A DNA stretch of 64,000 nucleotides from Planctomycetota bacterium (GTDB taxonomy: Bacteria; Planctomycetota; UBA1135; UBA2386): contig VGZG01000001.1 in NCBI GenBank assembly GCA_016872675.1, positions 77,182 to 141,181 of the forward strand, read 5' to 3'. Of the stretch, positions 1-64,000 are shown one piece after another (position 1 is the stretch's first letter; every line of letters starts with the position of its first letter). The notes beneath the pieces are model-generated. The model searched no databases and had not been told where the DNA came from. It saw only the letters and a program-made list of their open reading frames with translations. The translations under genes were made by a program, and so were the position numbers.

Positions 1-447
1 CGCCTGACCCACAACCACCGCCTGCAGATCGCGCTGCAGCGCGGCGACGACGACGCCATGCTGGAGGAGGCGAACGCCTACTTCGCGCTGTCGCAAAAGG
101 CCGCCGACCAGGTGCGCAAGGAGATCGAGCGCACCAACAACGCCGACTACGAGCGCGACCAGATGGACCTGCTGCGCATGCTGCGCAGCGAGGAGCTCGG
201 TGTCCGCCAGCTGGTCGCTGAGGAGCACTACGCCAAGAAGCGCTTCGACCTCGCGCTCGAGCAGCTCGACCGTATCCTCGAGGCCGATCCGCGGCGCACG
301 ACCGACTACTACAACCGCGGCCGCGTGCTGCTCGAGCTCGGCCGCGCCGAACAGGCCAAGGCCGACTTCCGCCGCTTCCTCGCCGATCCGACCGTACCTA
401 GCAACAGCGACAAGGCCGCCTTCGCGTTGCAGGCGATCGGACGCTGA
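1..447 (+). CDS. TPR-like repeat protein, C-terminal part (5' end lies outside the window)
   Basis: Frame 1 is open from nt 1 to TGA 445-447. Helical-repeat sequence ([55 protein letters not shown]) looks like TPR motifs. Normal amino-acid composition. Confidence 0.6.
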
Positions 448-449
448 CG

Positions 450-851
450 ATGGCCACCAAGGCCGACGTCCGCCTGCCGCGCGCGCGTCGGCTGCTCAAC
501 CAGCACGACTTCCGTGCCGTCTACCAGCGTGGCCAGCGCGCCGGCGGCCAGTGGCTGACGGTCGTGGCGCTGCGCCGCCGGCCGCGCGCCGGCGAGGCCG
601 CGCCGACGGAGTCGCGGCTGGGCGTGTCGGTCAGCAAGGACCACGGCGGTGCCGTGCGCCGCAACAAGCTCAAGCGCCTGCTGCGCGAAGCGTTCCGCCT
701 CGAGCGCCACCTGCTGCCGGCCGGCGTCGACGTGGTGCTGATCCCGCGGCAACGTCCCGAGAACTTCCCACTGGCGGAGCTGCGCGCCGAGGTCGCCCGC
801 CTCGTGCCCAAGGCGCTACAGGGCGGCGAGCGCCGCCGGCCACGGCCATGA
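450..851 (+). CDS. rnpA: Ribonuclease P protein component
   Basis: About 130 aa and basic. Has the RNase P protein hallmark [18 protein letters not shown] overlap with yidD, the classic rnpA-yidD arrangement. Confidence 0.9.
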
Positions 852-1078
852 GGTGGCTGCTGATGCTGCCGGTGCTGCTGTACCGGCTGCTGATCGGCTG
901 GTGGAAGCCGGCGACGTGCCGCTTCCATCCGACCTGCTCGCAGTACGCGCTCGACGCTTTGCGCGCGCACGGGGCGCTGCGCGGCAGCTGGCTCACCGCG
1001 CGCCGACTGCTGCGCTGCCATCCGTTCACCGAGGCCGGCTTCGACCCGGTGCCGGAGCGGCGACCGCCGGCGCAGTGA
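848..1078 (+). CDS. yidD: Membrane protein insertion efficiency factor YidD
   Basis: Internal ATG at 848 of ORF 200..1078. Product [60 protein letters not shown] matches the YidD signature (C-R-F-x-P-x-C-S-x-Y ... RCHP). Confidence 0.9.
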
Positions 1079-1117
1079 ATCCACGCCGGGTCGCGCCCGA
1101 CGGCGCCGCGACGCCGG

Positions 1118-2245
1118 CTACTTGCCGGCGCCGTCCGCCGTCATCTCGGCGAGCAGCTGGTCGACGGCCGTGTCCATCGCCTCGCCGCGCACGTTCATGA
1201 AGCGGATCACGCCCTTGTGGTCGACGACGTAGATCGTCGGCCAGCCGCGCACGTTCCACTTGCCCGAGATCGGGCCCTGCGTGCCCTTGGGGCCGTTCCA
1301 GAACGAACGCCAACTGACGCCGTTCTGCGCCTTCTCCGATTCGTAGTAGACCTTGTCGGCGTCACTGTTCACGCCGAGCAGGGCGAAGGGCTTGTCCTTC
1401 AGACGTTCCACGAGCGACCGCTCGTGCGGGATCATGGCCCGGCAGGGGCCTCACCAGAATCCCCAGTAGTCGAGGACGACGACCTTGCCACGGTAGTCGG
1501 ACAGCGCGAACTCCACGCCGTCCATGTCCTCGCCGCGGATGTCGGGGACCTCCATGCCGATCTGCAGGCGCTCCTTCTGGAAGCGCGGCGCGGCGATGCG
1601 GTCGGCGAGCTCGGTGCCGGCGGCGAGCTTCTCGGCCGCGGCCAGCAGGCCCTCGGCCTCCGCCTTCTGTTCGTCGGTCGGCTTGCCGCGCTGCAGCAGG
1701 ATCGCGCGCCAGTACTTGGCCCACGCCGTGGCGATGCCGTCGCCGTTCGCCGTCTCGACCTTGCCGAGCAGCGCCTTCGCCGGCTCGGTGCCGAGCGCGC
1801 TGAACAGCCCCATCGGCGACGCCAGCACGGTCAGCATCGAAGGGTCGGTGAGGTAGCTGCGCTCGAGCCGCTCGGCGGCCGCGGCGGCGACCTCCTTGTC
1901 GGCGACAAGCGCCGTCGCAGCGTAGGCGGCGAACCGGCCGCCGTGAGCGCCGTGCTGGTCGGCGAGCGCGAGCGCGCGCAGGCCGAGCGCCTTGGCGTCG
2001 GCGCGCTTGGCCTTGGCCATCAGCGCGCGGGCCGTGTCGTTGTCCTTGGCGTCGCGAGCGGCCTTGTACTCGGCCGAATCGGCGACCTGCTTCATCGCCG
2101 CGCGGGCGGCTGCCTGTTCGGCGGTCCACTCCGCGACCAGCATGTCGTACGCGGCCTTGGCTGCCGCGGCCGCGTCGCCGCCGGCCTGCGCCGGCAGCCA
2201 CGCGCCGAGCGCCAGGAGCGCTAGCGGGGTCAGGATCCTGTTCAT
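1118..2245 (-). CDS. Secreted TlpA/ResA-like thiol:disulfide oxidoreductase with in-frame TGA (1451-1453) at the first CxxC position; predicted selenoprotein (UGPC)
   Basis: ORFs 1451..2317(-) and 1118..1435(-) share one frame, separated only by the TGA. The joined sequence reads GKVVVLDYWGFW-TGA-GPCRAMIPHERSLVERL...LGVNSD...GWPTIYVVDHKG. Start ATG 2245 (MNRILTPLALLALGAWLPAQA, signal peptide) is preceded by GAGGA. Natural stop is TAG 1118-1120. Confidence 0.72.
1409..1450 (-). promoter_or_regulatory. Candidate bacterial SECIS element (two hairpins just 3' of the in-frame UGA)
   Basis: On the mRNA strand: UGA GGCCC-CUGCC-GGGCC (1436-1450), then AUGAUCCCG, then CACGAGC-GGUC-GCUCGUG (1409-1426). 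The second is a perfect 7-bp stem whose 4-nt loop contains G-U, beginning 24 nt after the UGA. Confidence 0.45.
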
Positions 2246-2309
2246 GGTGTCCTCGCCGGATCGCGCCGGTGCGCTGCCGACGGTTCGCCGACCCCGCGAA
2301 CGTACCGGT

Positions 2310-3224
2310 TCAGCCACCGGCGGCGCGACCAGCGAGCTGTCCCAAAAGCGCGACCAGGCTGAGCACGTCGAGGCGGTTGTGCTCCAGCACGCGGTCGACC
2401 GGGCCGGTGCGGTCGCGGACCCACGACAGGAACGCCGCCGGCGCCTCGCTGCCGGGCAGGTCGTCCTCGCGGCGCAGGCCGAACAGCCGGTCTTCGACGG
2501 TCTTCAGCTTGGTGTCCGGCCATTCCTTGGCGTGGCGCCGGCGCACGATGTGGAACAGGTCGAGGTGGCGCGCGGTCAGCACCGGCGCCTTCACCTTGTG
2601 CACCGCCATGCGCGCGGCGATGCGGTGGCGGTCGAAGCTCTTGCCGACGAACGTCACCGGCACCGGGAACTCGCGCATGCGCGCCGCGACGTGCGCCAGC
2701 ATCGCCGGCTCCTCGCCGAAGTCGCGCAGGAACAGCTGCTCGACGCAGACGTCGTCGCCATCCAGGAAGCCGAGGCCGTAGGCGAACACCACGGTGCCAG
2801 CGCCGCCCTGCAGTCCCGTCGTCTCGGTGTCGAGGAACAGGCACTCGCGCGGCGACAGCGTCGCGAACGCCGGCTCCTTGGCGAGCGTGGCCAGCCGTTC
2901 GCCGTCGAGCGCGGTGACGGCAGCGAGCGGCGCGCGCCCGTGTGCCGACGCCAACGGATAGCGCAGCAGCCGCCGCCAGATCGACCCCAGCGGCGTCGCC
3001 AGTTCCTCGCCCGGCGGCAATTCGACGACCGGCCGCGGCGGCGCACGGAACGCCTCCAAGCGCCGCTGCAGGAACGCGCGCGTCGCCGCCGCCGAAGACG
3101 ACACCGCCGCGCCGCCATCGCCGGCCGGAGTCGGCAGCGGGTACGGGGCCGCGACGACGTCGTCCGTCGCCGCCTTGGCGACGCGGAACGAGCGCCGCAG
3201 CTTGTCACGCTCCGGCGAGACCAT
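2310..3224 (-). CDS. RNase H-like 3'-5' exonuclease, YprB/MrfB-like
   Basis: Contains LFLDTETTGL (DEDD-type Exo I motif) and further RNase-H-fold-like blocks (FVGKSFDRHRI, LEHNRLDVLSL). Sits directly downstream of, and overlaps, the DUF1998 helicase as in B. subtilis yprA-yprB. Start taken at ATG 3224 (MVSPERD); the upstream ATG 3275 is also possible. Confidence 0.7.
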   Translation of the reverse strand: MVSPERDKLRRSFRVAKAATDDVVAAPYPLPTPAGDGGAAVSSSAAATRAFLQRRLEAFRAPPRPVVELPPGEELATPLGSIWRRLLRYPLASAHGRAPLAAVTALDGERLATLAKEPAFATLSPRECLFLDTETTGLQGGAGTVVFAYGLGFLDGDDVCVEQLFLRDFGEEPAMLAHVAARMREFPVPVTFVGKSFDRHRIAARMAVHKVKAPVLTARHLDLFHIVRRRHAKEWPDTKLKTVEDRLFGLRREDDLPGSEAPAAFLSWVRDRTGPVDRVLEHNRLDVLSLVALLGQLAGRAAGG

Positions 3225-5550
3225 GCGCCTCCGCGTCGTCGCCCGCACCGGCGCTGGCTGCGCCCGCCACGGCATCGTCCAGCATCGCCTGCAGGATCGT
3301 CACCGCCACCGGCTTGCTGCGCACGCCGAGGCTCGCCTGCGGGCCGACACAGCTCGGGCAGCCGCTGCGGCAGTGGCACTGCCGCGCCAACTGCAGCGCG
3401 GCGGCGAGGATCTCGCGGTGCACGCGGAAGATGCGCTCGGCGAGACCGACGCCGTTGGGGATGCGGTCGTAGAGGATCAGCGCTGGCGCCTGGAAGTGCG
3501 GATGCAGCGCCTCGGCGAGCACCTTCACGTCGCCGGGATCGACGCGCACGAACAGCGGCACGAGACCTTGCAGCAGTTCGCCGACGCCCTGCAGGCAACT
3601 GGCCTCGCCGCCCTTCTGCAGGCCCAGCCGCGCGACCAGCTCGGGCCGCAGCACCAGCGCGCACGCCTCGGTCTCGAACTCCTCCGGCGGCAGATGGATC
3701 TCGCCGATGCCGACGTTCTCGCGCGTGTAGAACTTGATCTTCTTGAACGCCTTGGCGAGCGTGCTGACGTGCACCTCGCCGCGGTGCGCGACGTAGGCGG
3801 CGCGCGGCTCCTCTTCGTCGAGGTGCAGCACCTTGACCTCGGTCTCGGTGTCGGCCTCGGTGTAGTAGTCGGCGTCGATACGGCGCACGAACGCGCGGCG
3901 GTCGTCGTAGTCGAAGCGCTCGACCAGCCACGTGTCGCCCTGGTGGCCGTAGATCGCGCCCTGGTAGACCTCGGTGATCGCCGACGGGCGGTCGATCTCG
4001 GCGAGGATCGCCTTCGACTCGACGTCCTGGATGGTGACGTTGTCCATGTCGGCGGCGGTCAGCGACACGCCCTCCGCCGGGTAGGTGCGGTCGGCGTAGT
4101 GCCAGCGACCGCCCTGGTGCACCAGCACGCCGAGGTCGTGCGTCAGGAAGTCGAGCACGTCGCGCGTGCCCGCGGCCTGGCCGAAGTCCTCGCCCTCGTC
4201 GAACGGCAACTCGAACGCCGCGCAGCGCACGTGGTTGGTGCGGATGATCGGGTTGTCCGGGTCGATGCTGACGGCGTCGCGCGGCGCGTCGAACAGGTAG
4301 CCCGGGTGCTGCATCAGGTACTGATCCATCGCCGCGCTGCGGGCGATGAAGACACAGGCGCTTTCCTGCGTGCGGCGGCCGACGCGGCCGGCGCGCTGGA
4401 ACGTGCTGGAGACGGTGCCCGGGTAGCCGACGAGCACGCAGACGTCGAGGCTGCCGATGTCGACGCCGAGTTCGAGCGCGTTGGTCGACACCACCGTGCG
4501 GATCGCGCCGCTGCGCAGGCCCTTCTCGATCGAGCGCCGCAGGTTGGGCAGGTAGCCGCCGCGGTAGCCGGCGACCTTGTCCTGGTCGATCTGCTTGCGC
4601 CGCGCGTCGTCGCGCAGGTACTTCAGCAGCACCTCGGTCTGGTTGCGCGAGCGCGCGAAGAAGATCGACTGCAACTCGCTGGCGAGCAGCATGCCGCCGA
4701 GCTGCCGCGCCGCCTCGCTCGCCGGCACGCGCAGGCCGGAGACCGCCGAAACCACCTTGGGGTTGAGGAAGACGTAGTGCTTGCGGCCGCGCGGGCTGCC
4801 GTCCTGGTCGACGACGCGCACCGGCTTCTCGAACAGCTTGCGGCCGTGCTCGCCGGCGTTGCTGATCGTCGCCGAGGCGCCGCAGAACACCGGATCGCTG
4901 CCGTAGTGGCGGCAGATGCGCTGCAGGCGGCGCAGCACGTTGGCGACGTGGCTGCCGTAGATGCCCGACAGCGTGTGCAGTTCGTCGACGACGACGTAGC
5001 GCAGGCCGGTGAACAGGCCCTGCCACTTGGTGTGGTTCGGCAGGATGCCCTGGTGCAGCATGTGCGGATTGGTCAGCACCATCACGCCGTGCTCGCGCAG
5101 GGCCTGCCGCACCTGCGGCGGCGTGTCGCCGTCGTAGACCGCGACGGTGAGGTCGCTGCGGCCGGTCGCGGCCAGCAGCTTCTCCAGGTCGGCCATCTGG
5201 TCGCGGGCCAGCGCCTTGGTCGGGTACAGGTAGAGGGCGCGGGCGTCGAGGCCTTCGCGCAGCACGGCGTCGAGCACCGGCAGGTGGTACGCGAGCGACT
5301 TGCCCGAGGCCGTCGACGTCGCGATGACCGCGTGCTTGCGCTCGTGCAGCAGGTCGGCGCACTCGCGCTGGTGGCCGTACAGTTCGACGATGCCGCGCGC
5401 GTGCAGCGCGTCGACCATCGCCGGGTGCAGCCACTCGGGGAACGGCTGCATCGCCGCCGGCCGCGCCGGCTGCACGTGCACCGCGTCGACCATGCCCGGC
5501 GACTCGTCGCCGCCGGCGCGCAGTCGCTGCAGGAACTGGCTCAGGTCCAT
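3205..5550 (-). CDS. DEAD/DEAH-box helicase with C-terminal DUF1998/MZB zinc domain (YprA/MrfA-, Hrq1-like)
   Basis: Start ATG 5550 (MDLSQFL) with GGAGG 7 nt upstream. Motifs: I ATSTASGKSLAY, II VVVDELH, SAT (GASAT), VI QRAGRVGRR. C-terminal Cys cluster CHCRSGCPSCVGP. The N-terminal 271 aa of ORF 3205..6366 are an R/A-rich shadow of the DPP gene. Confidence 0.9.
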   Translation of the reverse strand: MDLSQFLQRLRAGGDESPGMVDAVHVQPARPAAMQPFPEWLHPAMVDALHARGIVELYGHQRECADLLHERKHAVIATSTASGKSLAYHLPVLDAVLREGLDARALYLYPTKALARDQMADLEKLLAATGRSDLTVAVYDGDTPPQVRQALREHGVMVLTNPHMLHQGILPNHTKWQGLFTGLRYVVVDELHTLSGIYGSHVANVLRRLQRICRHYGSDPVFCGASATISNAGEHGRKLFEKPVRVVDQDGSPRGRKHYVFLNPKVVSAVSGLRVPASEAARQLGGMLLASELQSIFFARSRNQTEVLLKYLRDDARRKQIDQDKVAGYRGGYLPNLRRSIEKGLRSGAIRTVVSTNALELGVDIGSLDVCVLVGYPGTVSSTFQRAGRVGRRTQESACVFIARSAAMDQYLMQHPGYLFDAPRDAVSIDPDNPIIRTNHVRCAAFELPFDEGEDFGQAAGTRDVLDFLTHDLGVLVHQGGRWHYADRTYPAEGVSLTAADMDNVTIQDVESKAILAEIDRPSAITEVYQGAIYGHQGDTWLVERFDYDDRRAFVRRIDADYYTEADTETEVKVLHLDEEEPRAAYVAHRGEVHVSTLAKAFKKIKFYTRENVGIGEIHLPPEEFETEACALVLRPELVARLGLQKGGEASCLQGVGELLQGLVPLFVRVDPGDVKVLAEALHPHFQAPALILYDRIPNGVGLAERIFRVHREILAAALQLARQCHCRSGCPSCVGPQASLGVRSKPVAVTILQAMLDDAVAGAASAGAGDDAEAHGLAGA

Positions 5551-5669
5551 GCGTGGACCTCCGCTCGGTGACCGCCCATGGCCGCGCAGGCTAGCGGCGA
5601 CCCGAACGAAAGCCAAACATCCTGCCGCGGCGAGGCTGGCCAGCCGAGGCCGACCCGGTTCGCCGCCGG

Positions 5670-7955
5670 TCAGCGCGGCCCGGCCGGCACCCGCCGCTGC
5701 AGGAAGTCGGCGAGCGCGTCGTAGAGGTGCGCGCGGGTGCCAGCGCCCTCGTGGATCGAGTGGCTGCGGTTGGGATAGGCCAGGAACTCGAAGCGCTTGC
5801 CGTGCCGGACCAGCGCGTCGACCAGCCGTTCGCTGTTCTGGTAGTGCACGTTGTCGTCGGCGGTGCCGTGCACCAGCAGCAGGCTCGCCTGCAGGTTCGA
5901 TGCGTGCGTGATCGGCGAGCACTCGCGATAGACCTCGGGCACGCGCCGCGGATCGCCGCAGTACCGCTCCTGGTAGATCGTGTCGTAGAGCGCGATGTCG
6001 GTGACCGGCGCCACCGACATGCCGGCGGCGAACAGATCGGGACAGCGGAAGAGCAGGTTGAGCGTCATCGCGCCGCCGCCCGACCACCCCCACACCGCCT
6101 GGCGCGACGGGTCCATCCACGCGTGCTGCGCGCGCAGCTTCGTCACCGCCGTCTGCCAGTCGGCCGTGCTGACGACGCCGAGCTGCTGGTACAGCGCCTT
6201 GCGCCAGTCGCGGCCCTTGGGCGCTGGCGTGCCGCGCGCATCGAGCGACATCACCAGATAACCGCGCTGCGTCAGCCAGCGGTGGAACAGGTGATGGCCG
6301 AGCGACCACGTGTCCTTGACCGTCTGCGACCACGGCTCGCCGTAGACGTGGAACAGCGTCGGCCACTGCTTCTGCGGATCGAATCCCGCGGGGTACATCG
6401 CCCAGCCGTCGAGCACGACGCCGCCGCCGAGATCGACCGTGAAGAACTCATTGCGGCCCTTCTGCACCGCGGCGTAGCGGGCCCGCAGCGCCTGGTTGTC
6501 GACCAGCGTGCGCGCCACCTCGCCCGACGGCAGCCGCACGACCTCGATCGTCGGCGGCACGTCGAACGACGAGCGCGTGCGGATCGCCAGCGAACCATCG
6601 GGGCTGACCTGGTGCTCGTGCCAGCCGTCGGCGGGTCCGTTGAAGCCCTCGGTGGCGCCGATGCCGACGCCGCGCAGGCCCTTCCTGGCGCCGTGGTCGC
6701 TGGCGGCGACGTAGAGTTGCTCGCGCGCGAGGTCGACGTGCGCGACCTCGATGACGTCGAAGCCCGCGGTCAGCGGCAGGTGCGTCACCAGCACCTGCTT
6801 GCCGCGCGTGTCCCAGACGATCGTGCCGGCCTGCCGCCAGCGCTTCTGGCCCGGCTGCGCGAACGCCGTGTCGCTGGTCCAGAAGAAGCGCTCGCCACCG
6901 TCGCACCACGCGAAGTCGTCGCGCACGTCGACGTAGGCTTCATCCTTCTCTTCGTGCACGACGCGCGCAGCGCCGGTGGCGACGTCGCAGGCGAGCACGC
7001 GCAGCTCGTTCTGCGCGCGCGGCAGCCACTGCACCATGAGTTCCTTGCCCTGCGGGTGCCACGCCATGCGCGGCAGGTAGGTCTCGCGCGGATCGCCGGG
7101 CGTCTGCATCCAGGTGATCGCGCCACCCTTCGCCGACACGACGCCGACGCGGCAGGCCGAGTTGGTCGTGCCGGCCTTCGGATACTGCACCGGCAGCGTG
7201 CGCGCGTAGCGATCGGCGAGGTTGTCGATCATCAGGAACTCGCCGACGCCGCTGCAGTCGAGCTGCCAGAAGGCGATCGCGCTGCCGTCCGGGCTCCAGC
7301 GGAAGCCGTCGCGGCAGTCGAACTCCTCCTCGTACACCCAGTCGAACGTGCCGTGGATCCGCGTGCGCGAGCCCTGGTCCGTCAGCCGCGTGCGCGCGCC
7401 GGTGACCGCGTTCTCGACCCAGAGGTCGTTGCCGCTGACGTACGCGACGCGGCTGCCGTCAGGCGACCACTTGGCGAACTGCAGCGAACCCTTCGACAGG
7501 TCGCCGCCCAGGCGCGCCGGCGGCCGACTGCCGTCGAGCGCGAGCACGTAGTACTCGCCGCGCGTGTTCTGCCGCCAGACGCGCTCGCTCTCGGTGAACA
7601 CCAGCAGCCGCGCGCCGTCCGGCGCAAAGGCGTAGTCCTCGACGACGATCGCCTGCTTGCCCGCGCGCGCGAGCCGCGCGGCGCCGACCAGCACGGAGCG
7701 GGCGCCGGTGACCGCGTCGTAGCGAACCAACTCCAGCGTCGCGCCGTCAGCGCCGGGTTCGAGCGTCGCGTAGTGCGCGCCGTCGAGCCAGCGCGCCGGA
7801 CCGAAGCGCGCCGCCGCGAACTCGCCGCCACCGACGCGCTTGGCGTCGAGCAGCGACGGATCGCCTTGCGCAGTCAGCGCGGCGAGCAGGAATGGAACGA
7901 ACGCGAGACGGCAGGGCACGGTCACCATGGCGCGCATGCTAAGCGCCGCGACCAC
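5670..7955 (-). CDS. Dipeptidyl-peptidase IV / prolyl oligopeptidase family S9 serine peptidase (secreted)
   Basis: N-terminal signal-like segment, then a beta-propeller DPPIV_N-like region (WSPDGS repeated). C-terminal alpha/beta hydrolase with nucleophile elbow GWSGGG and HGTADDNVH. The start may instead be ATG 7937 or 7928. Confidence 0.9.
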   Translation of the reverse strand: MVAALSMRAMVTVPCRLAFVPFLLAALTAQGDPSLLDAKRVGGGEFAAARFGPARWLDGAHYATLEPGADGATLELVRYDAVTGARSVLVGAARLARAGKQAIVVEDYAFAPDGARLLVFTESERVWRQNTRGEYYVLALDGSRPPARLGGDLSKGSLQFAKWSPDGSRVAYVSGNDLWVENAVTGARTRLTDQGSRTRIHGTFDWVYEEEFDCRDGFRWSPDGSAIAFWQLDCSGVGEFLMIDNLADRYARTLPVQYPKAGTTNSACRVGVVSAKGGAITWMQTPGDPRETYLPRMAWHPQGKELMVQWLPRAQNELRVLACDVATGAARVVHEEKDEAYVDVRDDFAWCDGGERFFWTSDTAFAQPGQKRWRQAGTIVWDTRGKQVLVTHLPLTAGFDVIEVAHVDLAREQLYVAASDHGARKGLRGVGIGATEGFNGPADGWHEHQVSPDGSLAIRTRSSFDVPPTIEVVRLPSGEVARTLVDNQALRARYAAVQKGRNEFFTVDLGGGVVLDGWAMYPAGFDPQKQWPTLFHVYGEPWSQTVKDTWSLGHHLFHRWLTQRGYLVMSLDARGTPAPKGRDWRKALYQQLGVVSTADWQTAVTKLRAQHAWMDPSRQAVWGWSGGGAMTLNLLFRCPDLFAAGMSVAPVTDIALYDTIYQERYCGDPRRVPEVYRECSPITHASNLQASLLLVHGTADDNVHYQNSERLVDALVRHGKRFEFLAYPNRSHSIHEGAGTRAHLYDALADFLQRRVPAGPR

Positions 7956-11650: not shown

Positions 11651-11864
11651 GACCGGAGCGTACGGGGACGGCCGGGCTGCGCCATCGCGCAGCCTCGCGA
11701 TGGGCCGACGCGCGCCGAACCGGCGCGTGGTCCGCAGTCGCAGCAGCGCCGATGACCGCAGGCATACCGGCGGATTCGCCGCGGATCGGCGGCTGGCTAC
11801 AGGGCGCAACGACGCGAAACGCCGCGGCGTGGCCGCGCGTGACGCAGATTCGTAGGATACGCGC

Positions 11865-12740
11865 GTGCCCCGCTTCGTTGCCGGCCTTGCCCTCTGCTTC
11901 GCCGTCGCGGCCTGCGGCGCGCCACCACCGCCCGTGGTGAGCGGGGACCTGCGACTGCCGACGGGCGCGCGCGTCGCGACGCTGGTCGCGCCGGCCTACG
12001 ATGGGCAGGCCGCTGCCGCGACGTGCAAACCGTTCCATCGCGTCTTCGCGGTCGACGGCAGGCAACTGACCAAGGACCTCGACGGCGAGTTCCCCCACCA
12101 CCGCGGCGTATTCGTCGGCTGGAACCACGTCATCTGCGGCGACGCGACGTTGGACTTCTGGCACTGCCGCAACGGTGAAGCGCAGCGCACGCTGGCGGTT
12201 ACCGGCGGCAGCGACGCGTCGCAGGTTGCGACCATCGCGTGGACCGATGCGGCCGGCGGCGAGATCCTACGCGAGACGCGCACCGTCGCCGTGCGGCCAC
12301 TGGCCGATGGCGCGTTCGCGCTCGATGTGACGTCGGAGCTGACGACGACGCAACCGAGCGTGCGCCTGGGCGGCGATCCGCAACATGCCGGCAACCAGTT
12401 CCGCGCCGTGCAGCGCTTCGCCGATGCGGACGGGCCAAAGGTCGACTACGTGCGGCCGGCGGCCGCAGGCGCGCACGGCAACGACGTCTGGACCGGCTGC
12501 CGCTGGATCGCTGCCGTGCTGCCGATGGCGGGCGGCCCGGTCACCGTGCTGCGCATCGAAGGCGACGGCAATCCGCCCGCCGACTGGTCGACGCGCCCTT
12601 ACGGGCGCTTTGGCGCAATGTGGCGCGCCGAGTTGACGCCAACGCGGCCGCTGCGCCTCGCCGTCACCTATGTCGTGGCCGACGGGGCGCGCGACGCCGC
12701 GTGGTGCGACGCAACGGCGGCGGCGCCGTCGCGGCGCTGA
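11865..12740 (+). CDS. PmoA-family / DUF6807-like lipoprotein
   Basis: GTG start. Lipobox-like LALCFAVAAC. Block FPHHRGVFVGWNHV...LDFWHC resembles the DUF6807 (PmoA-like) family common in PVC bacteria. Confidence 0.65.
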   Translation: MPRFVAGLALCFAVAACGAPPPPVVSGDLRLPTGARVATLVAPAYDGQAAAATCKPFHRVFAVDGRQLTKDLDGEFPHHRGVFVGWNHVICGDATLDFWHCRNGEAQRTLAVTGGSDASQVATIAWTDAAGGEILRETRTVAVRPLADGAFALDVTSELTTTQPSVRLGGDPQHAGNQFRAVQRFADADGPKVDYVRPAAAGAHGNDVWTGCRWIAAVLPMAGGPVTVLRIEGDGNPPADWSTRPYGRFGAMWRAELTPTRPLRLAVTYVVADGARDAAWCDATAAAPSRR

Positions 12741-12746
12741 CCGCGC

Positions 12747-13409
12747 TCAGCGCGCGCGCAGCTGCGCCAGTTCGGCCTGCAGCGCAAGCACCTGCCGCTC
12801 GAGGTCGGCGACGCGGACCGCGAGGTCGCCGACCGGCGTGCGCGGCGCCTCGGAGGCGACGGGCGCTGGCGCAGCCGCCGCCGGTCCGGCCTCGGATACG
12901 CCAGCAGGACTGCCGTCGCCGAGCAGGTGCCGCCAGCGGCGATCGCGCTCGCGCGGGCCGAGCGGCAACTGCTCAACCAGCGGCACGGAGCGCGACGCGA
13001 GACCTCGCAGCAGCGCCTCGATCGCCGCCGCCTCGGCCTGACAGCCCATGCGCCCGACGCGCGGCTTGAGCGCGCCCGGCGCCTGTGGGCCGCGCAACAG
13101 CAGTTCAGCGAACACCGGCAGCTCGCCGGGCGCGCACGGCAGGATTTCGTCGAGCTTGTGGCGGTACTTCGGCACGCGCCCGGCGCCGTCGATGCGCGCG
13201 AGCACGCCCTTCTGCTGCAACGCCATCAGCGCGCCCGCCACCTGGAAGACCTCGTACGCGGTGACCGGGTCGCGGTTGTTGGACTGATTGCAGCCGGCGA
13301 CCAGCGCGTGCTCGGTCAGTGGGTAGCTGTCGGGCACCGACAGCTGCTTCTCGATCAGCGTGCCGACGATGCGCTGCTCGGTCGGATCGAGCCGGAGAGC
13401 CTGCTTCAT
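12747..13409 (-). CDS. yceH: YceH-family (DUF480/UPF0502) protein
   Basis: N-terminus LDPTEQRIVGTLIEKQLSVPDSYPLTEHALVAGCNQSNNRDPV is the characteristic YceH opening. C-terminal coiled coil. ATGA overlap with the upstream gene. Confidence 0.8.
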   Translation of the reverse strand: MKQALRLDPTEQRIVGTLIEKQLSVPDSYPLTEHALVAGCNQSNNRDPVTAYEVFQVAGALMALQQKGVLARIDGAGRVPKYRHKLDEILPCAPGELPVFAELLLRGPQAPGALKPRVGRMGCQAEAAAIEALLRGLASRSVPLVEQLPLGPRERDRRWRHLLGDGSPAGVSEAGPAAAAPAPVASEAPRTPVGDLAVRVADLERQVLALQAELAQLRAR

Positions 13410-15643
13410 GGGCGTTCGCCGCCGCCCGTGGGCGGCGTCACGCCGGGGATGCCGCCAGGCAGCTGCTTCTTGCGATCTGCCGCTGCCTTCTTCTTGGCGG
13501 CCTCCTCGTCGGCCTTCTTCTTCGCCGCTGTCTCCGTCGTCGGTTGGGTCGTCGACTTGCCGCCGCCGCCCGGCAGGCCCGGAATGCCGCCCGGCAGGAG
13601 CTTCTTCAGCTCGTCGGCAGCCTTCTTCTTGGCCGCCTCCTCGAGCCGCTTCTTCTCGGCGTCGAGCTTGGCCTGCGCCTCGGCGGCGAAGCGCTTGGCT
13701 TCGGCTTCCGCCTTGGCCTTGGCCTCGTCGGCCAAGCGCTTGGCCTCGGCTGCGGCCGCGGCCTTGGCGGCGTCGAGGTTCTCGCCAACCGACTTGCTCG
13801 GATCGAGGTACTTGCCGGCGTCGATGCCGTACTTGCCGAGCAGCTTGCCGGACTGACCCGCGACGAAGTTGGCGAGTTCCTGCTTGCCAGCCTCGAGCAA
13901 CGCGTCCTGCAGCGCCTTGTCCGAAAGCGCGAACGACGGCCGCGTCAGCGGACCCTTGATGCCGATCGGCAACGACAACGACTCGACCTTGGTCTCCTTG
14001 CTGCCTGCAAGCGCGAACGTCGTGTCCTTGATGGTGACGTCGAGCGGCAGATCGAGCGACAACGGTTGGCCGCCCCGCCGCTGCAGACCGCCCGCGGCGG
14101 CGAGGTCGAGCGTGCCGCCGCGCAGCGGCGCCGCGCCGCCGATCTTCAGCTGGCCGAACACGCTGTCGACCGGCACGCCCTTCTGGGCATAGGTAAAGCT
14201 GAGCGCGGGCGTGCCGACGGCAGCGGCGCGGCCGGCGCGCGACAGGCCGACGGCCAGGATGCCGCTCTGCGCCTTGAGGTCGAACGACAGGTTGCCGTCG
14301 ACGAGCGCCGGCCGGTCGGAGAGGTTGGCCGCCTTGAGGTCGAGCTTGCCGGCCTTGCCGCCGAGCGAGTAGCCGATGCCGTCGATGACGACATTGCGAA
14401 CGAGCACGCGCGGCGCTCCGTCGAACAGGTGCGTCGCGACGACGCGCGCGAGCCCAGCGACCTCCGCCTTGGCGCGTTCGTCGGCCTGCCGCTGCTGCTC
14501 GGCCTGCCGCTCTTCCGGCGTCGGATCCGCCTTCGGCGCTTCGGGACCAGCGATCTTCTCGATCCAGTCGCGCGCCTGCGCGAGACGCTCCTTCCAGACA
14601 TTGTAGTCCTTCAGCACATCGTCGATCGTCGGCAGGCCGCCGGGCTCCTTCGGCGGCTCCGGCGGCGGCTCGGCGCCGGGGTAGCGCACGCCCGGCGTGG
14701 CGCGCGCAGCGCCGCTGCGGGCGTTTTGCGCGGTGATCGCCTCGATGACGAAGCGCTTGCGCAGCAGTTCGCCGGTGTCGAGCGTCGCGACCAGCGCGTC
14801 GGCGGCGAACAGGTCCACGCCGAGGTCCTTGCTGTCGGCGATGGCGAGGCCATCGACGCGCAGTTCACCGCTGCCGAGACCGAGCTGCGCGGTCTTGACG
14901 TCGACGGTCGCGCCGTTCATCGCCTGCAGGCCCGATTGCAGCGTGCGCGTCAGCACCGGCGCCGAGAGCCACGTCTGCAGGACCCACACGCTGGCGACGA
15001 ACACCGCCGCGACGACGACGCCGCCGATGCGGACCGGCAGGCCGGCCTTCTTCTGCGCCGCGAGTTCCTGCCACGTCAGCTTCTTCTGGCCCTTGCCGAG
15101 GAACAGCCACGTCAGCAGCTTGACCCACTTCTTGCTCGCGTACTGCTGGTAGACCGCGCTGCTGGCTTCGAGTCCGGCCATCTTGCCGCGCACCGCGCGG
15201 ATGCCGCGATTCATCAGCCCGCCGACGAGCACGCCGTACACGAGGCCGAGCACGAGGCCGCCGGCGGTGGCGTAGTACTCGAGGCCGAACCACGCCGTGA
15301 CCTTGCCGTTGACGAGGCCGCGGAAGGTCCCCGCGAACGGCCCGTCGAGCAGCCAGCGACCGAGCGCGTAGCTGACCGGCAGCAGCGCGAGGCTCAGCAG
15401 TTTGCCGACCAGCGTGACGAGGCCGAACACGCCGAGGTTGGCGTTCAGCACCAGCACGAGGAACAGCAGCAGCAGGATCAGGCCCGGCGCCTGCATCAGG
15501 CCGCCGCCGAGGTCGCCCGGCAGGAAGAAGCCGGGGACGAAGCCGAGCGCGCCGCCGATCACGGTCGCGAGGAGCACTTGCAGGGGCGTCGCGTTGCCCC
15601 GGAACACCGACCCGATCTTCCGCAGGAGGAACATGGTCGCCAC
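13406..15643 (-). CDS. Large membrane protein: N-terminal DUF2062/TIGR03546-like polytopic module fused to a TIGR03545/AsmA-like beta-rich module, with a Lys/Ala-rich repeat tail
   Basis: 745 aa. About 4 TM helices in the first 150 aa, another TM near aa 215, then AsmA-like repeats (GATVDVKTAQLGLGSGELRVDGLAIAD...). The C-terminus has two copies of AAKKKA..KK.LPGGIPG. Family assignment is from memory and unverified. Confidence 0.7.
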   Translation of the reverse strand: MATMFLLRKIGSVFRGNATPLQVLLATVIGGALGFVPGFFLPGDLGGGLMQAPGLILLLLFLVLVLNANLGVFGLVTLVGKLLSLALLPVSYALGRWLLDGPFAGTFRGLVNGKVTAWFGLEYYATAGGLVLGLVYGVLVGGLMNRGIRAVRGKMAGLEASSAVYQQYASKKWVKLLTWLFLGKGQKKLTWQELAAQKKAGLPVRIGGVVVAAVFVASVWVLQTWLSAPVLTRTLQSGLQAMNGATVDVKTAQLGLGSGELRVDGLAIADSKDLGVDLFAADALVATLDTGELLRKRFVIEAITAQNARSGAARATPGVRYPGAEPPPEPPKEPGGLPTIDDVLKDYNVWKERLAQARDWIEKIAGPEAPKADPTPEERQAEQQRQADERAKAEVAGLARVVATHLFDGAPRVLVRNVVIDGIGYSLGGKAGKLDLKAANLSDRPALVDGNLSFDLKAQSGILAVGLSRAGRAAAVGTPALSFTYAQKGVPVDSVFGQLKIGGAAPLRGGTLDLAAAGGLQRRGGQPLSLDLPLDVTIKDTTFALAGSKETKVESLSLPIGIKGPLTRPSFALSDKALQDALLEAGKQELANFVAGQSGKLLGKYGIDAGKYLDPSKSVGENLDAAKAAAAAEAKRLADEAKAKAEAEAKRFAAEAQAKLDAEKKRLEEAAKKKAADELKKLLPGGIPGLPGGGGKSTTQPTTETAAKKKADEEAAKKKAAADRKKQLPGGIPGVTPPTGGGERP

Positions 15644-49115: not shown

Positions 49116-50237
49116 TCACCAGTCCAGCAGCGAGAAGACCCAGGTGAACGCCGCGTCGAGCGCGACCAGCGCGAACAACACGACGACGACCGCCGAAGTG
49201 GTCGAGCGGCCGACGCCGTCGGCGCCGCCGCGAGTGGCGAGGCCGCGCTGGCAAGCGATCAAGCCGATGGCGATCCCAAACACGATGCTCTTCATCAAGC
49301 CGGTGCCGATGTCGAGCATGTCGATCCACTGCTGAAACACCTGCACGTAGACGACGGCCGGTTGCTGCAGATAGCCGACGGCGATCGCCATGCCGCCGAG
49401 CGTGCCGAGGAAGTCGCCGACGATGGTCATCGCCGGCACGACCACCACCATCGCCAGCACGCGCGGGAACACCAGGAAGCGCTGCGGGTCCTGGCCGAGC
49501 GTGCGCAGCGCGTCGATCTCCTCGTTGACCGTCATCGTGCCGAGCTCGGCGGCGTACGCCGCGCCCGAACGGCCGGTGATCAGGATCGCGGTCATCAGCG
49601 GGCCGAGTTCGCGCACCACCGACAATCCGACGAGGCTCGCCAGGAACTGGTCACCGCCGAAGCGGTGTAGCTGGATCGCGCCCTGCAGGCCGAGGATCGC
49701 GCCGACCAGGAAGTTGATCAGCATCACGATCGGCAGGCCGTCGGCGCCGGCGCGCTCGACCAGCAGGCCGAACTCGCCCATGTGCACGGTGCGCGGCTGG
49801 CGGATCGCGCGACCGACGCTCCAGACCAGGTCGCCGAGGAAGGCGAGGATCGCCTGCGTCGTGCGCCACGTGTCGTGCGCGAAGTCGCCGACGTCGCCGA
49901 GCAACGACGACGGCGCCGGATCCGGTTCGTCGCCCGCGCCGTGGCGCGCACTGTCGTACAGGGCGAGAAGGTGCGCGACTTCGCCGGTCGCGCCGACGAA
50001 GCGGAACGGCCGGCCGCCGCGCGCCCAATTGGCGCGCACCGCCTGCAGCAGCGCCGCCGCGCCGCCGTCGAGCCGCGCGACACCGGCGAGGTCGATGGTC
50101 GCCGCCGTGGCCCCGGCCAGCGCCTGCCGCAGCTCCTGCCACAACGCCGCGCCGTCGGCGAGCGTGACCGAGCCGGTGAGCGAGACCCGGCGCTCGGCGC
50201 CGTCGTCGCGGGTCAGCGAATAGCCGGTGGGCGCCAT
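49116..50237 (-). CDS. mlaE: MlaE-type ABC permease with N-terminal STAS (MlaB-like) domain
   Basis: The first ~95 aa resemble an anti-sigma-antagonist/STAS fold (SLTGSVTLADGAALWQEL...IDLAGVARLDGGAAALL). The remainder is MlaE (GPLMTAILITGRSGAAYAAELGTMTVNEEIDAL). Confidence 0.87.
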   Translation of the reverse strand: MAPTGYSLTRDDGAERRVSLTGSVTLADGAALWQELRQALAGATAATIDLAGVARLDGGAAALLQAVRANWARGGRPFRFVGATGEVAHLLALYDSARHGAGDEPDPAPSSLLGDVGDFAHDTWRTTQAILAFLGDLVWSVGRAIRQPRTVHMGEFGLLVERAGADGLPIVMLINFLVGAILGLQGAIQLHRFGGDQFLASLVGLSVVRELGPLMTAILITGRSGAAYAAELGTMTVNEEIDALRTLGQDPQRFLVFPRVLAMVVVVPAMTIVGDFLGTLGGMAIAVGYLQQPAVVYVQVFQQWIDMLDIGTGLMKSIVFGIAIGLIACQRGLATRGGADGVGRSTTSAVVVVLFALVALDAAFTWVFSLLDW

Positions 50238-61569: not shown

Positions 61570-61657
61570 GGCGAGCAAAACAGGCAGGATGGCGGTCGGC
61601 GGCGACAATATAGACCAGTTTTGGGGCCTTTTTCCGACCCAGGTGTTGAACGAGCCC

Positions 61658-61663
61658 TAAAAT
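61658..61663 (+). promoter_or_regulatory. Candidate -10 element (TAAAAT) for the iscRSU operon
   Basis: Lies in the AT-rich patch between ygfZ and iscR, 47 nt upstream of the iscR ATG. No well-spaced -35 found. Confidence 0.25.
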
Positions 61664-61709
61664 GGATCTAGTTACACCCACCACGTTCGGCAAGCCGCCG
61701 GACCTCCGC

Positions 61710-62291
61710 ATGTTGCGCATCTCCAAGAAGGCCGACTACGCCGTGTTCCTGCTGGGCGCGATCGCCCGGCAAGGGGCCTATCCCGGGGGCGAACACCCCG
61801 AGGCAGTGGTCAGCGCCCACGAGATCGCCCGGCTGGCCAAGCTCAGCAAGTCGGTCGTCGCCAATCTGCTGAAGGAGTTCGCCAAGCACGGGTTCCTGGA
61901 CTCGGTGCGCGGCCTCAGGGGCGGCTACCGGCTGGCCAAGGCCCCCGCCGCGATCGCGCTGGCCGACATCCTCGAAGTCGTCGAGGGCCGCTTCACCCTG
62001 GTCGAGTGCGTCGCGCACGGCCACGCGGCCGCCGCCACCGCCCCGTCGGGCGGCGCGACTGCGTCCGGCAGCGGCCTGCTGTCGCTCGCCCCGAGCATGC
62101 GCGCCACCGACGACCACGACGGCGTTGACTGCGCGCTGATCGCCTTCTGCCCGAGCAAGGCGCCGATGCGCGTCGTGCACGACCGCATCGCGCGGCTGTT
62201 CCGCGACATCCGCCTCGACGAACTCTGCGCCCTGCCGCCTCGCGGACCTGCCGGCCGCCCCGCCGCCGCGGTTCCCACCCACGCCCGATGA
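61710..62291 (+). CDS. iscR: Rrf2-family transcriptional regulator (IscR-like) with an insertion in the Cys-ligand region
   Basis: Start ATG 61710 gives the [15 protein letters not shown] Rrf2 opening. wHTH block [42 protein letters not shown]. Cys pattern is C-X40-C-X5-C. ATGA overlap with iscS. Confidence 0.85.
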
Positions 62292-63502
62292 AGACCCCGC
62301 TCTACCTCGACTACAGCGCCACCACGCCGTGCGACCCGCGCGTCGTGCAGCGCATGCTGCCGTTCTTCAGCGACGCCTTCGGCAACGCCGCCAGCCGCAG
62401 CCACGCGTTCGGCTGGACCGCCGAAGCCGCCGTCGAGGAAGCGCGCAGCCAGGTCGCGCAGCTGATCGGCGCGCACCAGAAGGAGATCCTCTGGACCAGT
62501 GGCTCGACCGAGGCCAACAACCTCGCGATCAAGGGCGTGGCCCAGATGTACCGCGAGAAGGGCAACCACCTGATCACCGCGGTCACCGAGCACAAGGCCG
62601 TGCTCGACCCGATGAAGAACCTCGAGGCGCAGGGCTTCGAGGTCACGTGGCTGCCGGTCGACGGCAGGGGCCGCGTCGACCTCAAGCAGCTCGAGGCGGC
62701 GATCACTGACCGCACGATCCTGGTGTCGCTGATGGCGGCCAACAACGAGGTCGGCACGCTGCACCCGATCGCCGAGATCGGCGCCATCTGCAAGCAGAAG
62801 GGCACGCTGTTCCACAGCGACGCCACGCAGTGCCCCGGCAAGATCCCGCTCGACGTCGAGGCGCAGCACGTCGACCTGATGTCGATCTCGGCGCACAAGA
62901 TGTACGGGCCGAAGGGCGTCGGCTGCCTGTACGTGCGGCGCAAGAACCCGCGCGTGCGCCTGACCGCGCAGATGGACGGCGGCGGCCACGAGCGCGGCAT
63001 GCGCTCGGGCACGCTCAACGTCACCGGCATCGTCGGCATGGGCGAGGCCGCGCGCATCTGCCGCGAGGAGATGGCGACCGAGGCGCAAAAGCTCAGGGCG
63101 CTGCGCGACCGGCTGGAGGCCCGGCTGCTGAAGGCGCTGCCCGACGCCGTGCGCAACGGCGACCCCGACGCGCGCCTGCCGCACCTGGCCAACGTCTCAT
63201 TCCCCTACGTCGAGGGCGAGTCGCTGATCATGGGCATCAAGGAGCTCGCCGTGTCATCCGGTTCGGCGTGCACGTCCGCGAGCCTCGAGCCGAGCTACGT
63301 GCTGAAAAGCCTGGGACTCGGCGACGAACTGGCGCACAGCTCGATCCGCTTCTCGCTCGGCCGCTTCACCACGGAGGCAGAGGTCGACTTCGCCGCCGAC
63401 CGCGTCATCGCCGAGGTCAAGCGCCTGCGCGAGATGTCGCCGCTCTGGGAGATGGTCCAGGACGGCGTCGACCTCAGCCAGGTGAAGTGGACGCACCATT
63501 GA
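62288..63502 (+). CDS. iscS: Cysteine desulfurase IscS
   Basis: [25 protein letters not shown]-Lys block [14 protein letters not shown], active-site loop [17 protein letters not shown]. Confidence 0.95.
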
Positions 63503-63698
63503 TCGGGTCGCCGCGACAAGGCGGGGAACAACTCATGACGAATCCAAGCATCCAGCCCGCCGACGACGAGCCGAATTGATTGGCCCGCCAGACAACGCGC
63601 CCGATCCAGATCGCCACGCAAGCAACAGACATTCCAGCGCCTGAACCCGACGCCGCGAACCGCACACCCGACGAACCAACGACACCCAGCCAACAGCC

Positions 63699-64000
63699 AT
63701 GGCCTACAGCGACAAGGTCCTCGACCACTACCAAAACCCGCGCAACGTCGGCTCCCTCGACAAGAACGCTCCCGACGTCGGCACCGGCGTCGTCGGCGCG
63801 CCCGAGTGCGGCGACGTCATGAAGCTGCAGATCAAGGTCGGCGACGACGGCCGCATCCTCGACGCCAAGTTCAAGACCTACGGCTGCGGCTCGGCGATCG
63901 CCTCGTCGTCGCTGGCCACCGAGTGGCTCAAGGGCACGACGGTCGACGCCGCGGCGCAGATCAAGAACACACAGATCGTCGAGGAGCTGTCGCTCCCGCC
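63699..64000 (+). CDS. iscU: Fe-S cluster assembly scaffold IscU (3' end outside the window)
   Basis: Not in the ORF track because it has no stop in the window. ATG 63699 gives MAYSDKVLDHYQNPRNVGSLDKNAPDVGTGVVGAPECGDVMKLQIKV...KTYGCGSAIASSS, the canonical IscU sequence. Confidence 0.93.
   Translation, partial: MAYSDKVLDHYQNPRNVGSLDKNAPDVGTGVVGAPECGDVMKLQIKVGDDGRILDAKFKTYGCGSAIASSSLATEWLKGTTVDAAAQIKNTQIVEELSLP

Follow-up and report, generated by a model that had tools for sequence, protein, structure and literature searches.

Does a TGA codon on the minus strand of a Planctomycetota contig end one gene, or does it encode an amino acid in the middle of another? The codon lies at 1453–1451 of a stretch of 64,000 nucleotides (nt) from contig VGZG01000001.1 (assembly GCA_016872675.1, positions 77,182 to 141,181). 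This whole 64-kb stretch is called the window here, and coordinates refer to it unless a locus is named. Two entries of its list of open reading frames (ORFs), 1451..2317(-) and 1118..1435(-), share one frame and are split by the TGA. We propose, with a probability of roughly 0.88, that 1118–2245(-) is a single gene, and that its product is a predicted exported thiol-disulfide oxidoreductase in which selenocysteine (Sec, U in motifs) replaces the nucleophilic Cys. An earlier note on this DNA, made from the letters alone, had reached the same view. All its coordinates were reproduced, its observation was confirmed in every detail, and its interpretation is supported by the comparisons described below.

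The frame of 1118–2245(-) contains exactly one internal stop, the TGA, which is codon 265. The ATG at 2245 is taken as the start, and an upstream GTG at 2317 is disfavoured, because the orthologues open with the same MNRIL... sequence. The junction reads ...YRGKVVVLDYWGFW-TGA-GPCRAMIPHERSLVERLKDKPFALLGVNSD...GWPTIYVVDHKGVI, and its upstream side is also given as ...SDYRGKVVVLDYWGFW-TGA-GPCRAMIPHERSLVERLKDKPFALLGVNSD. Past the junction the frame stays open to a TAG rather than a TGA, as the earlier note had stated. TGA has not been reassigned in the source organism, since 28 of the 29 Pfam-supported ORFs of the window terminate with it. The predicted selenoprotein gene stops with TAG, unlike those 28. 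Among 125 homologues the final stop is TAG in 62, TGA in 46 and TAA in 17; genes with a Sec UGA may tend to avoid another one as terminator, or the TAG may be due to chance.

In the protein, the TGA stands for the first redox residue of a W-C-x-x-C motif of TlpA/ResA type (YWGFW-U-GPC). For the domain searches, U was read as C. Three Pfam families then match across the junction, as follows: AhpC-TSA (57.4 bits against a threshold of 26, 1.8e-15), Redoxin (53.4 bits against 26.6, 3.2e-14) and Thioredoxin_8 (38.1 bits against 27). The ResA subfamily of NCBIfam matches at 1.7e-17. The closest solved structure is ResA, PDB 4nmu (9.5e-16), in which FWGTW-C-KPC aligns to YWGFW-U-GPC. Thus, the Pfam matches and the structure alignment agree in placing the TGA at the CxxC redox position of a thioredoxin fold. 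A WP[TSA] motif is found at the same distance in 108 of the 125 homologues, corresponding to the predicted cis-proline loop of this fold.

Relatives of the gene were collected in two ways. A protein search seeded with the joined sequence, that is, with the TGA read through, found about 30 database proteins of 258–292 residues, most of them from metagenome-assembled genomes (MAGs) of Planctomycetota. These proteins cover the first 63–70% of the query at 41–99% identity and have no Pfam domain. All 17 of the orthologue proteins inspected end in ...(F/Y)WG(F/Y)W; that is, the gene caller stopped at the same codon. Homologous loci are numbered from L001. In L001–L005 the TGA is at this codon with an open frame downstream, which runs for 111–116 codons in L001 (GCA_046341435.1), L002 (GCA_020638655.1) and L004 (JGI). 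In these three contigs the 45 nt past the TGA are identical to the window bar one synonymous C/T, while the identity of the N-terminal domain to that of the window is 88% for L001 and 50–54% for L002 and L004.

The wider sample comprised species-representative genomes and metagenomes, searched with an alignment of the N-terminal parts and with the peptide patterns L[SG][DE]YRGKVV and [VL][LI]D[FY]WGFW. Both patterns end before the codon in question, so the search cannot favour TGA over TGC. In the 160 loci, WG[FYH]W is followed by TGA in 90 cases, by TGC in 4 and by TGT in 2. A relaxed motif gives 139 distinct 75-nt TGA junctions, mostly from Planctomycetota MAGs, with some from Verrucomicrobiales. 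The downstream frame is open for at least 90 codons in 124 of the 125 junctions that have enough sequence, with a median of 109 codons as against 18 in the other two frames. Orthologues thus keep the TGA in this column, as seen also in the 30 or so proteins cut at ...WG[FY]W, and the downstream half has not decayed in relatives. The sole case of 125 with an extra in-frame TAG, seven codons past the TGA (GPCRAM*; L124, 3343–3417), is probably a pseudogene or a sequencing error.

Several genomes have between two and four TGA paralogues, as in JACKIC01 (L002 and L017) and OZ245838.1 (L012 and L028), and tandem arrays of three (L104) and four (L099) copies are found on single contigs. Full-length Cys forms exist as well, namely P0007 (FWGFW-C-GPCRAMIPHERSLV), P0050 and P0075, and P0007 and P0050 carry Cys at the aligned position. 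Hence the codons for Cys and for predicted Sec alternate at one position among the homologues. Two typical members, L015 (CAYPJB010000145.1) and L057 (CAZESP010000012.1), come from records labelled 'uncultured Bacteroidales' and 'uncultured Alcaligenaceae', respectively; the odd labels could be due to mis-binning or to horizontal transfer.

A candidate selenocysteine insertion sequence (SECIS) lies just past the TGA. It is a perfect 7-bp hairpin with the 4-nt loop GGUC, running from 1426 to 1409; it begins 24 nt past the TGA and its loop lies 31 nt past it. Folded alone, its minimum free energy (MFE) is -10.5 kcal/mol. The consensus for bacterial SECIS (bSECIS) elements has an apical loop of 3–9 nt, an upper stem of 4–16 bp, a UGA-to-loop distance of 16–37 nt, a G within the first two loop positions and an MFE of -7.5 kcal/mol or below (PMC13188914). 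Usually the loop starts with G followed by G or U (PMC13188914). The window hairpin agrees with all four published bSECIS criteria (4-nt loop starting with GG, 7 bp, 31 nt, -10.5 kcal/mol), and the spacing that the earlier note had placed in the bacterial range is indeed within it. The 'G-U pair' that the note saw in the apical loop is not the relevant feature, which is a loop opening with G and then G or U.

A hairpin in a single sequence is weak evidence, and it is the comparative data that lift the observation far above chance. The exact arrangement TGA-N24-CACGAGCGGTCGCTCGTG, an 18-mer at 24-nt spacing, recurs in 92 of 167 loci. Across the 139 sequences, 88.7% of the cells of the 7-bp helix are paired, compared with 29–41% when the partner strand is slid by 1–3 columns. 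The synonymous sites within the element are frozen. Arg+11, inside the hairpin, is CGG in 61 of 66 sequences, as against 6 of 51 for Arg+16, five codons on. Leu+13 is CTC in 78 of 80, as against 23 of 51 for Leu+17, four codons on, and Ser+12 is TCG in 57 of 57. The Pro and Glu/Lys codons that flank the hairpin vary freely. Minor variants of the peptide, H-E-K-A/T/E-L-V, keep the outer CACGA/UCGUG stem around a larger G-containing loop. A double change in the stem, from C-G to U-A, is found in L054, and one of the L099 copies has a rebuilt lower stem.

The Cys forms provide a comparison. Locus L166 (1933–5470) has three tandem paralogues, a Cys form (P0007) between two Sec forms. Its TGC copy, at L166:3823, encodes the same HERSLV peptide but has CACGAGCGAUCGCUGGUG, with a G-to-A change in the loop and a C-to-G change in the stem that breaks a pair, whereas both TGA copies flanking it have the perfect hairpin. 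The Cys copy is a case of early hairpin decay and serves as a natural control for the SECIS constraint. Other Cys forms (CPPC, CPIC) are without the hairpin and have a different peptide there. Thus, the stem-loop is kept in TGA-containing genes and degraded in Cys forms, and we take the hairpin to be under selection as RNA, judging from these alignments. It is conservation, rather than covariation, that supports the helix. As for the covariation check that the earlier note proposed, conservation of the hairpin proved strong and true compensatory covariation sparse.

The earlier note also described a second hairpin, GGCCC-CUGCC-GGGCC, abutting the TGA. It is present in the window sequence, but the family does not conserve it: pairing holds in 66.2% of its cells across the 139 sequences, 68 of 139 retain the outermost pair, and the hairpin is broken in all G-P-C-Val variants. 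We regard it as arising incidentally from the G-P-C-R-A codons; at most, it would be a lineage-specific extra.

Several observations weigh against reading the TGA as Sec. Double changes occur in 2 of the 7 pairs only, and the covariation counts barely exceed those of shuffle controls, because the element is conserved rather than covarying. RNAalifold gave an empty consensus structure on the 139 sequences. In the window, 27 of 878 TGA triplets (about 3%) have a 7-bp perfect hairpin with a G-started loop 16–37 nt downstream. A 67-nt region at this site folds no better than dinucleotide shuffles (z = -0.81), a score that is uninformative in sequence of 72% G+C, the composition of the window. Rfam finds no SECIS or other family at the junction, only noise at E = 4. 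The stem is perfect, without the bulged U17 of the fdhF SECIS of E. coli. Finally, the 64-kb window contains no selA, selB, selD or tRNA-Sec (Pfam sweep of all coding-looking frames, ARAGORN and Rfam), and neither selD nor tRNA-Sec was found in the sequence flanking the closest orthologues (up to 10 kb). In addition, Rfam at the gathering threshold returned nothing on the whole window, and no second copy of the hairpin was found elsewhere in it.

Sec machinery does appear beside other homologues. The homologous loci, 1.6 Mb in total, contain only 11 tRNAs, and three of these are tRNA-Sec with a UCA anticodon, in L015, L128 and L161 (72, 66 and 60 bits with Rfam RF01852). Each lies 1.4–1.8 kb from a TGA-form homologue, and the three belong to three lineages. 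In L161 a selD gene (TIGR00476, 350 bits) has an in-frame TGA of its own at the catalytic position, SSCAG-U-ASK. The compact L161 cluster (330–1424(-), 1515–1607(-) and 2127–2172(-)) runs as selD, tRNA-Sec and the TGA-form TlpA-like gene, and the tRNA-Sec is separated from the TGA-form gene by an Acido-Lenti-1 RNA match of Rfam (45.5 bits, cut-off 37). A tblastn search of the 1.6 Mb of loci and the window, with E. coli SelA, SelB and SelD as queries, matched only the SelD of L161; for SelA and SelB this is weak evidence, as these two queries matched nothing in any locus, and it does not imply that the genes are absent near the orthologues. A homologue search with the L161 SelD found only close relatives of L161 and no link to the window lineage. 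Complete selA, selB, selC and selD sets are present in several Planctomycetes (PMC4807772).

If the UGA is recoded, what does it encode? The sequences alone do not single out one amino acid, and two routes other than Sec may be considered. In the first, Cys would be inserted by a tRNA-Sec-like tRNA-Cys acting with SelB and the hairpin; tRNA-Sec-like tRNAs that are charged with Cys and used by SelB occur in some bacteria. In the second, a near-cognate tRNA would read through with Trp or Arg, with the structure past the UGA as the stimulus. The first seemed to gain from a 93-nt tRNA-Cys(GCA) call by ARAGORN at 49986–50078(-). This call is a false positive in G+C-rich coding DNA; the site is part of the reading frame of an MlaE/STAS permease gene, and Rfam finds no tRNA there. 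The tRNAs found beside homologues are instead canonical tRNA-Sec with the UCA anticodon, in one case together with selD, the gene for the selenium donor. As to the second route, an enzyme with Trp or Arg in place of the nucleophile would be inactive, and selection would not favour it. Moreover, TGC is one mutation away, yet the Cys route is rare in the family (6 of 96). Recoding to an amino acid other than Sec is, on balance, very improbable.

The next question is whether the TGA is a true terminator. The locus would then hold two genes, or a gene and a remnant, i.e., a 264-residue secreted helical protein and a 105-residue fragment starting from the ATG at 1435. This is how the gene callers of NCBI, JGI and ENA treat every orthologue and how GenBank and IMG annotate the locus; in addition, an ATG lies 15 nt past the TGA, and the window lacks visible Sec machinery. 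The position of the split speaks for one gene. It falls one residue before the active site, within the β1–α1 junction of a single fold, and neither half is sensible alone, as the earlier note had argued. The short segment between the TGA and the ATG speaks for it as well. In 86 TGA forms the Cys at +3 of the CxxC motif, the resolving Cys, is invariant (TGC in 77, TGT in 9), and the amino acids G-P-C-(R/V)-A are kept while their codons vary (GGC 53, GGG 9, GGA 4; CCC 33, CCT 31, CCG 14). This stretch is translated, since its amino acids are kept while its codons vary; therefore, the two-gene reading is ruled out. The ATG itself encodes the Met of a C-R-A-M motif that is common to the uninterrupted Cys forms. 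Nor would a nonsense mutation be retained at a single codon across 139 distinct sequences in which the downstream frame is intact. We consider a true terminator very improbable. An assembly or sequencing error for TGC has nothing specific in its favour beyond the general possibility of a single-base error, and it is negligible given the same TGA in independent NCBI, JGI, ENA and Logan assemblies and in relatives at 99%, 96%, 91% and 89% identity. Neither a nonsense mutation nor an assembly error can explain the TGA pattern across relatives.

Sec at codon 265 is thus the preferred reading. We infer Sec insertion, export and a substrate for the protein, which may work as follows. During translation, SelB carrying Sec-tRNA(Sec) would bind the hairpin 24 nt past the UGA, and Sec would be inserted at the UGA instead of termination, as in the standard bacterial mechanism. 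The same 18 nt would encode H-E-R-S-L-V at the start of helix α1, so that the RNA signal would fix this stretch of the protein. After export, Sec265 would attack a substrate disulfide, or a sulfenic or otherwise oxidised cysteine, to give a selenenylsulfide, which Cys268 would resolve, by analogy with ResA/TlpA chemistry. The helical N-terminal domain probably selects the partner protein, a role that we offer as speculation.

The earlier note called attention to a long Ala-rich secreted N-terminal domain. The domain is long, but it is not low-complexity filler. AlphaFold2 (AF2), run with a 17-sequence alignment (A1), gives it 13 helices and predicted local distance difference test (pLDDT) values of 90–97 over residues 30–210. 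It is conserved in orthologues down to 41% identity. Pfam has no match to it, and Foldseek against the PDB finds weak TPR-type matches only (E of 0.3 or more). Residues 1–21 are a predicted signal peptide with an A-Q-A cleavage site, read from the sequence, and AF2 confidence is low over residues 1–20. The features of the gene are collected in the following table.

Features of the predicted selenoprotein gene (window coordinates; MFE, minimum free energy)
Feature	Position	Strand	Details
Complete selenoprotein gene (predicted)	1118..2245	(-)	375 codons; ATG 2245-2243, TAG 1120-1118
Signal peptide, Sec-type (secretory), predicted	2183..2245	(-)	MNRILTPLALLALGAWLPAQA; A-x-A cleavage motif; n-, h- and c-regions read from sequence
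All-α N-terminal domain, weakly TPR-like	1568..2182	(-)	About residues 22-226; no Pfam family
TlpA/ResA-like thioredoxin-fold domain	1178..1561	(-)	Residues 229-356; Pfam, NCBIfam and structure match
Redox motif U-G-P-C	1442..1453	(-)	Predicted Sec codon TGA 1453-1451; resolving Cys TGC 1444-1442
Hairpin GGCCC-CUGCC-GGGCC abutting the TGA	1436..1450	(-)	MFE -8.7 kcal/mol
Predicted SECIS hairpin CACGAGC-GGUC-GCUCGUG	1409..1426	(-)	Codons His274-Val279 (HERSLV)
W-P-T cis-proline loop, opposite the active site	1235..1243	(-)	Read from sequence; G-W-P-T, residues 334-337

The neighbourhood of the gene is kept among relatives, in the order DEAD/MZB helicase, RNase_H_2 gene, selenoprotein gene, then yidD, rnpA and a TPR gene. 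In relatives, one to three lineage-specific genes stand between the selenoprotein gene and yidD; in the window, yidD follows directly. The preceding pair, a DEAD/Helicase_C/MZB helicase and an RNase_H_2-superfamily gene, occupies 2310–5571(-) of the window and has the same order in L001, L002 and L004. By domain content it resembles an MrfA/MrfB-type repair pair. In the 89%-identical relative L001, the gene is followed by a 438-residue paralogue of the P0006 type (4530–5846), which is absent from the window and has a degenerate active site, FWSFANSNC, with neither Cys nor Sec first.

Other parts of the window were also surveyed. Same-frame ORF pairs split by a TGA near 15701, 20744, 49116 and 53770 are ordinary gene ends (e.g., pgk, a PstS-like gene, mlaE/mlaF) and do not mark additional selenoprotein genes. 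In the pair near 12741 (11856–12740 and 12741–13856), the upstream member is a DUF6807 gene, and the downstream half has no Pfam family and no redox motif at the TGA. The segment 33500–39300 has a weaker third-position G+C contrast than the rest of the window and carries, on its plus strand, lpxB and genes for an ABC ATPase and a UbiD-family decarboxylase; its long overlapping open frames are artefacts of G+C richness. At 61650–63998(+), genes for an Rrf2-family regulator, a class-V aminotransferase (IscS/NifS-like) and a NifU_N domain protein (IscU) form an iron-sulfur cluster assembly operon that runs off the window end.

What does the locus add to what is known? The window gene joins an already known class, since UxxC selenoproteins of the same fold are established as predicted families. 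Three points are mildly notable, namely the size and Sec-dominance of the clade, a near-invariant SECIS at 30–50% protein identity, and the splitting of every public copy inspected. The known mechanism of Sec encoding is unchanged by this gene. We raise as a doubtful possibility that it is the founding example of a large Sec-dominant Planctomycetota/Verrucomicrobiota clade, with about 94% Sec forms, arrays of up to four copies, selC and selD adjacent in some lineages, and essentially one invariant 18-mer SECIS at a single spacing in lineages with 30–50% protein identity. Were this so, the recognition of the RNA by SelB would be unusually strict, or a Sec cassette would have spread by repeated gene conversion or transfer, and the main selenoprotein family of such lineages would be systematically absent from public annotation.

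The annotation matters in itself. As the earlier note had foreseen for standard pipelines, the annotation of every public copy inspected shows two genes, one for a protein of 258–290 residues named 'hypothetical' or 'TlpA family', the other for a fragment of about 105 residues. It follows that hundreds of genes in Planctomycetota/Verrucomicrobiota MAGs are truncated, and that the Sec trait is under-counted. The near-invariant arrangement TGA-N24-CACGAGCGGTCGCTCGTG offers a simple and specific flag for repair of these annotations. The locus is also a case in which an RNA signal would dictate protein sequence; H-E-R-S-L-V would exist because of the hairpin. A further implication is that the host bacteria may invest selenium in an extracytoplasmic redox enzyme.

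How does the gene compare with known systems? UxxC thioredoxin-fold selenoproteins of TlpA-like and Prx-like type have been known since 2004–2005 and are, as the earlier note stated, an established class (PMC13188914, PMC1088965). Table 1 of PMC13188914 lists a 'Prx-like thiol:disulfide oxidoreductase' (PF00578, UxxC) and a 'Thiol-disulfide isomerase-like protein' (TlpA-like, cd02966, UxxC), and the TlpA-like UxxC family was first reported from the Sargasso Sea in 2005 (PMC1088965). The window protein shares with these families the AhpC-TSA/Redoxin/TlpA thioredoxin fold, a U-x-x-C motif with Sec first, widespread Cys homologues and a coding-region SECIS hairpin just downstream; domain content and motif are the sole basis for placing it in either family. 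It differs from them in that its clade has the motif DxWG[FYHD]W-U-[GP]PC, an all-α N-terminal domain of about 200 residues behind the signal peptide, and a nearly invariant 18-nt SECIS at a fixed 24-nt spacing.

Candidates from the same phylum have been described. Kim et al. (2016) list split candidates from Planctomycetes P1 named 'thiol-disulfide isomerase-like thioredoxin', 'peroxiredoxin' and 'AhpC/TSA' (PMC4807772, Table S9), in genomes with the full selA/selB/selC/selD set (PMC4807772, Table S8). Phylum, fold and the two-gene annotation artefact are shared with the window gene, and the likeness, drawn by description, extends to closest NCBI matches with Cys at the aligned position. In the two 'thiol-disulfide isomerase-like' candidates bSECISearch found no SECIS, whereas the window element fits the consensus. 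NCBIfam NF041054, the 'ResA-like WAxxUGC motif-containing protein', is likewise a ResA-like selenoprotein with Sec in its redox motif. Membership of the window protein in this family was rejected (32.7 bits against a cut-off of 300), its motif being WGFW-U-GPC and not WAxxUGC.

The closest solved structures, with values of 9.5e-16 to 3e-11, belong to the ResA/TlpA/CcmG/DsbE group of periplasmic or extracytoplasmic thiol-disulfide oxidoreductases, which includes B. subtilis ResA, PDB 4nmu (a ResA) and Bradyrhizobium TlpA (1jfu). This group and the window protein have in common the W-C-x-x-C context, the cis-Pro loop and the extracytoplasmic location, the last predicted for the window protein. 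The window protein differs in its predicted Sec for the nucleophilic Cys and in its extra helical N-terminal domain, and its gene is not beside cytochrome-maturation genes in the window. It also falls far below the NCBIfam equivalog cut-offs for ResA (NF002854, 63.9 against 170) and TlpA (NF047696, 51 against 230). The window protein is a relative, not an orthologue, of ResA or TlpA.

The last comparison concerns the RNA. Like the SECIS of E. coli fdhF, the window element is a hairpin within the coding region, a short way 3′ of the UGA, and has G then U in its apical loop. The apical loop of fdhF is also GGUC. In fdhF, G23 and U24 of the loop are the SelB contacts, U17 is bulged, and the hairpin lies 11 nt from the UGA (PMC8659212). 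The window hairpin starts at 24 nt rather than 11 nt past the UGA, and thus fits the general bacterial SECIS consensus and not the special case of E. coli.

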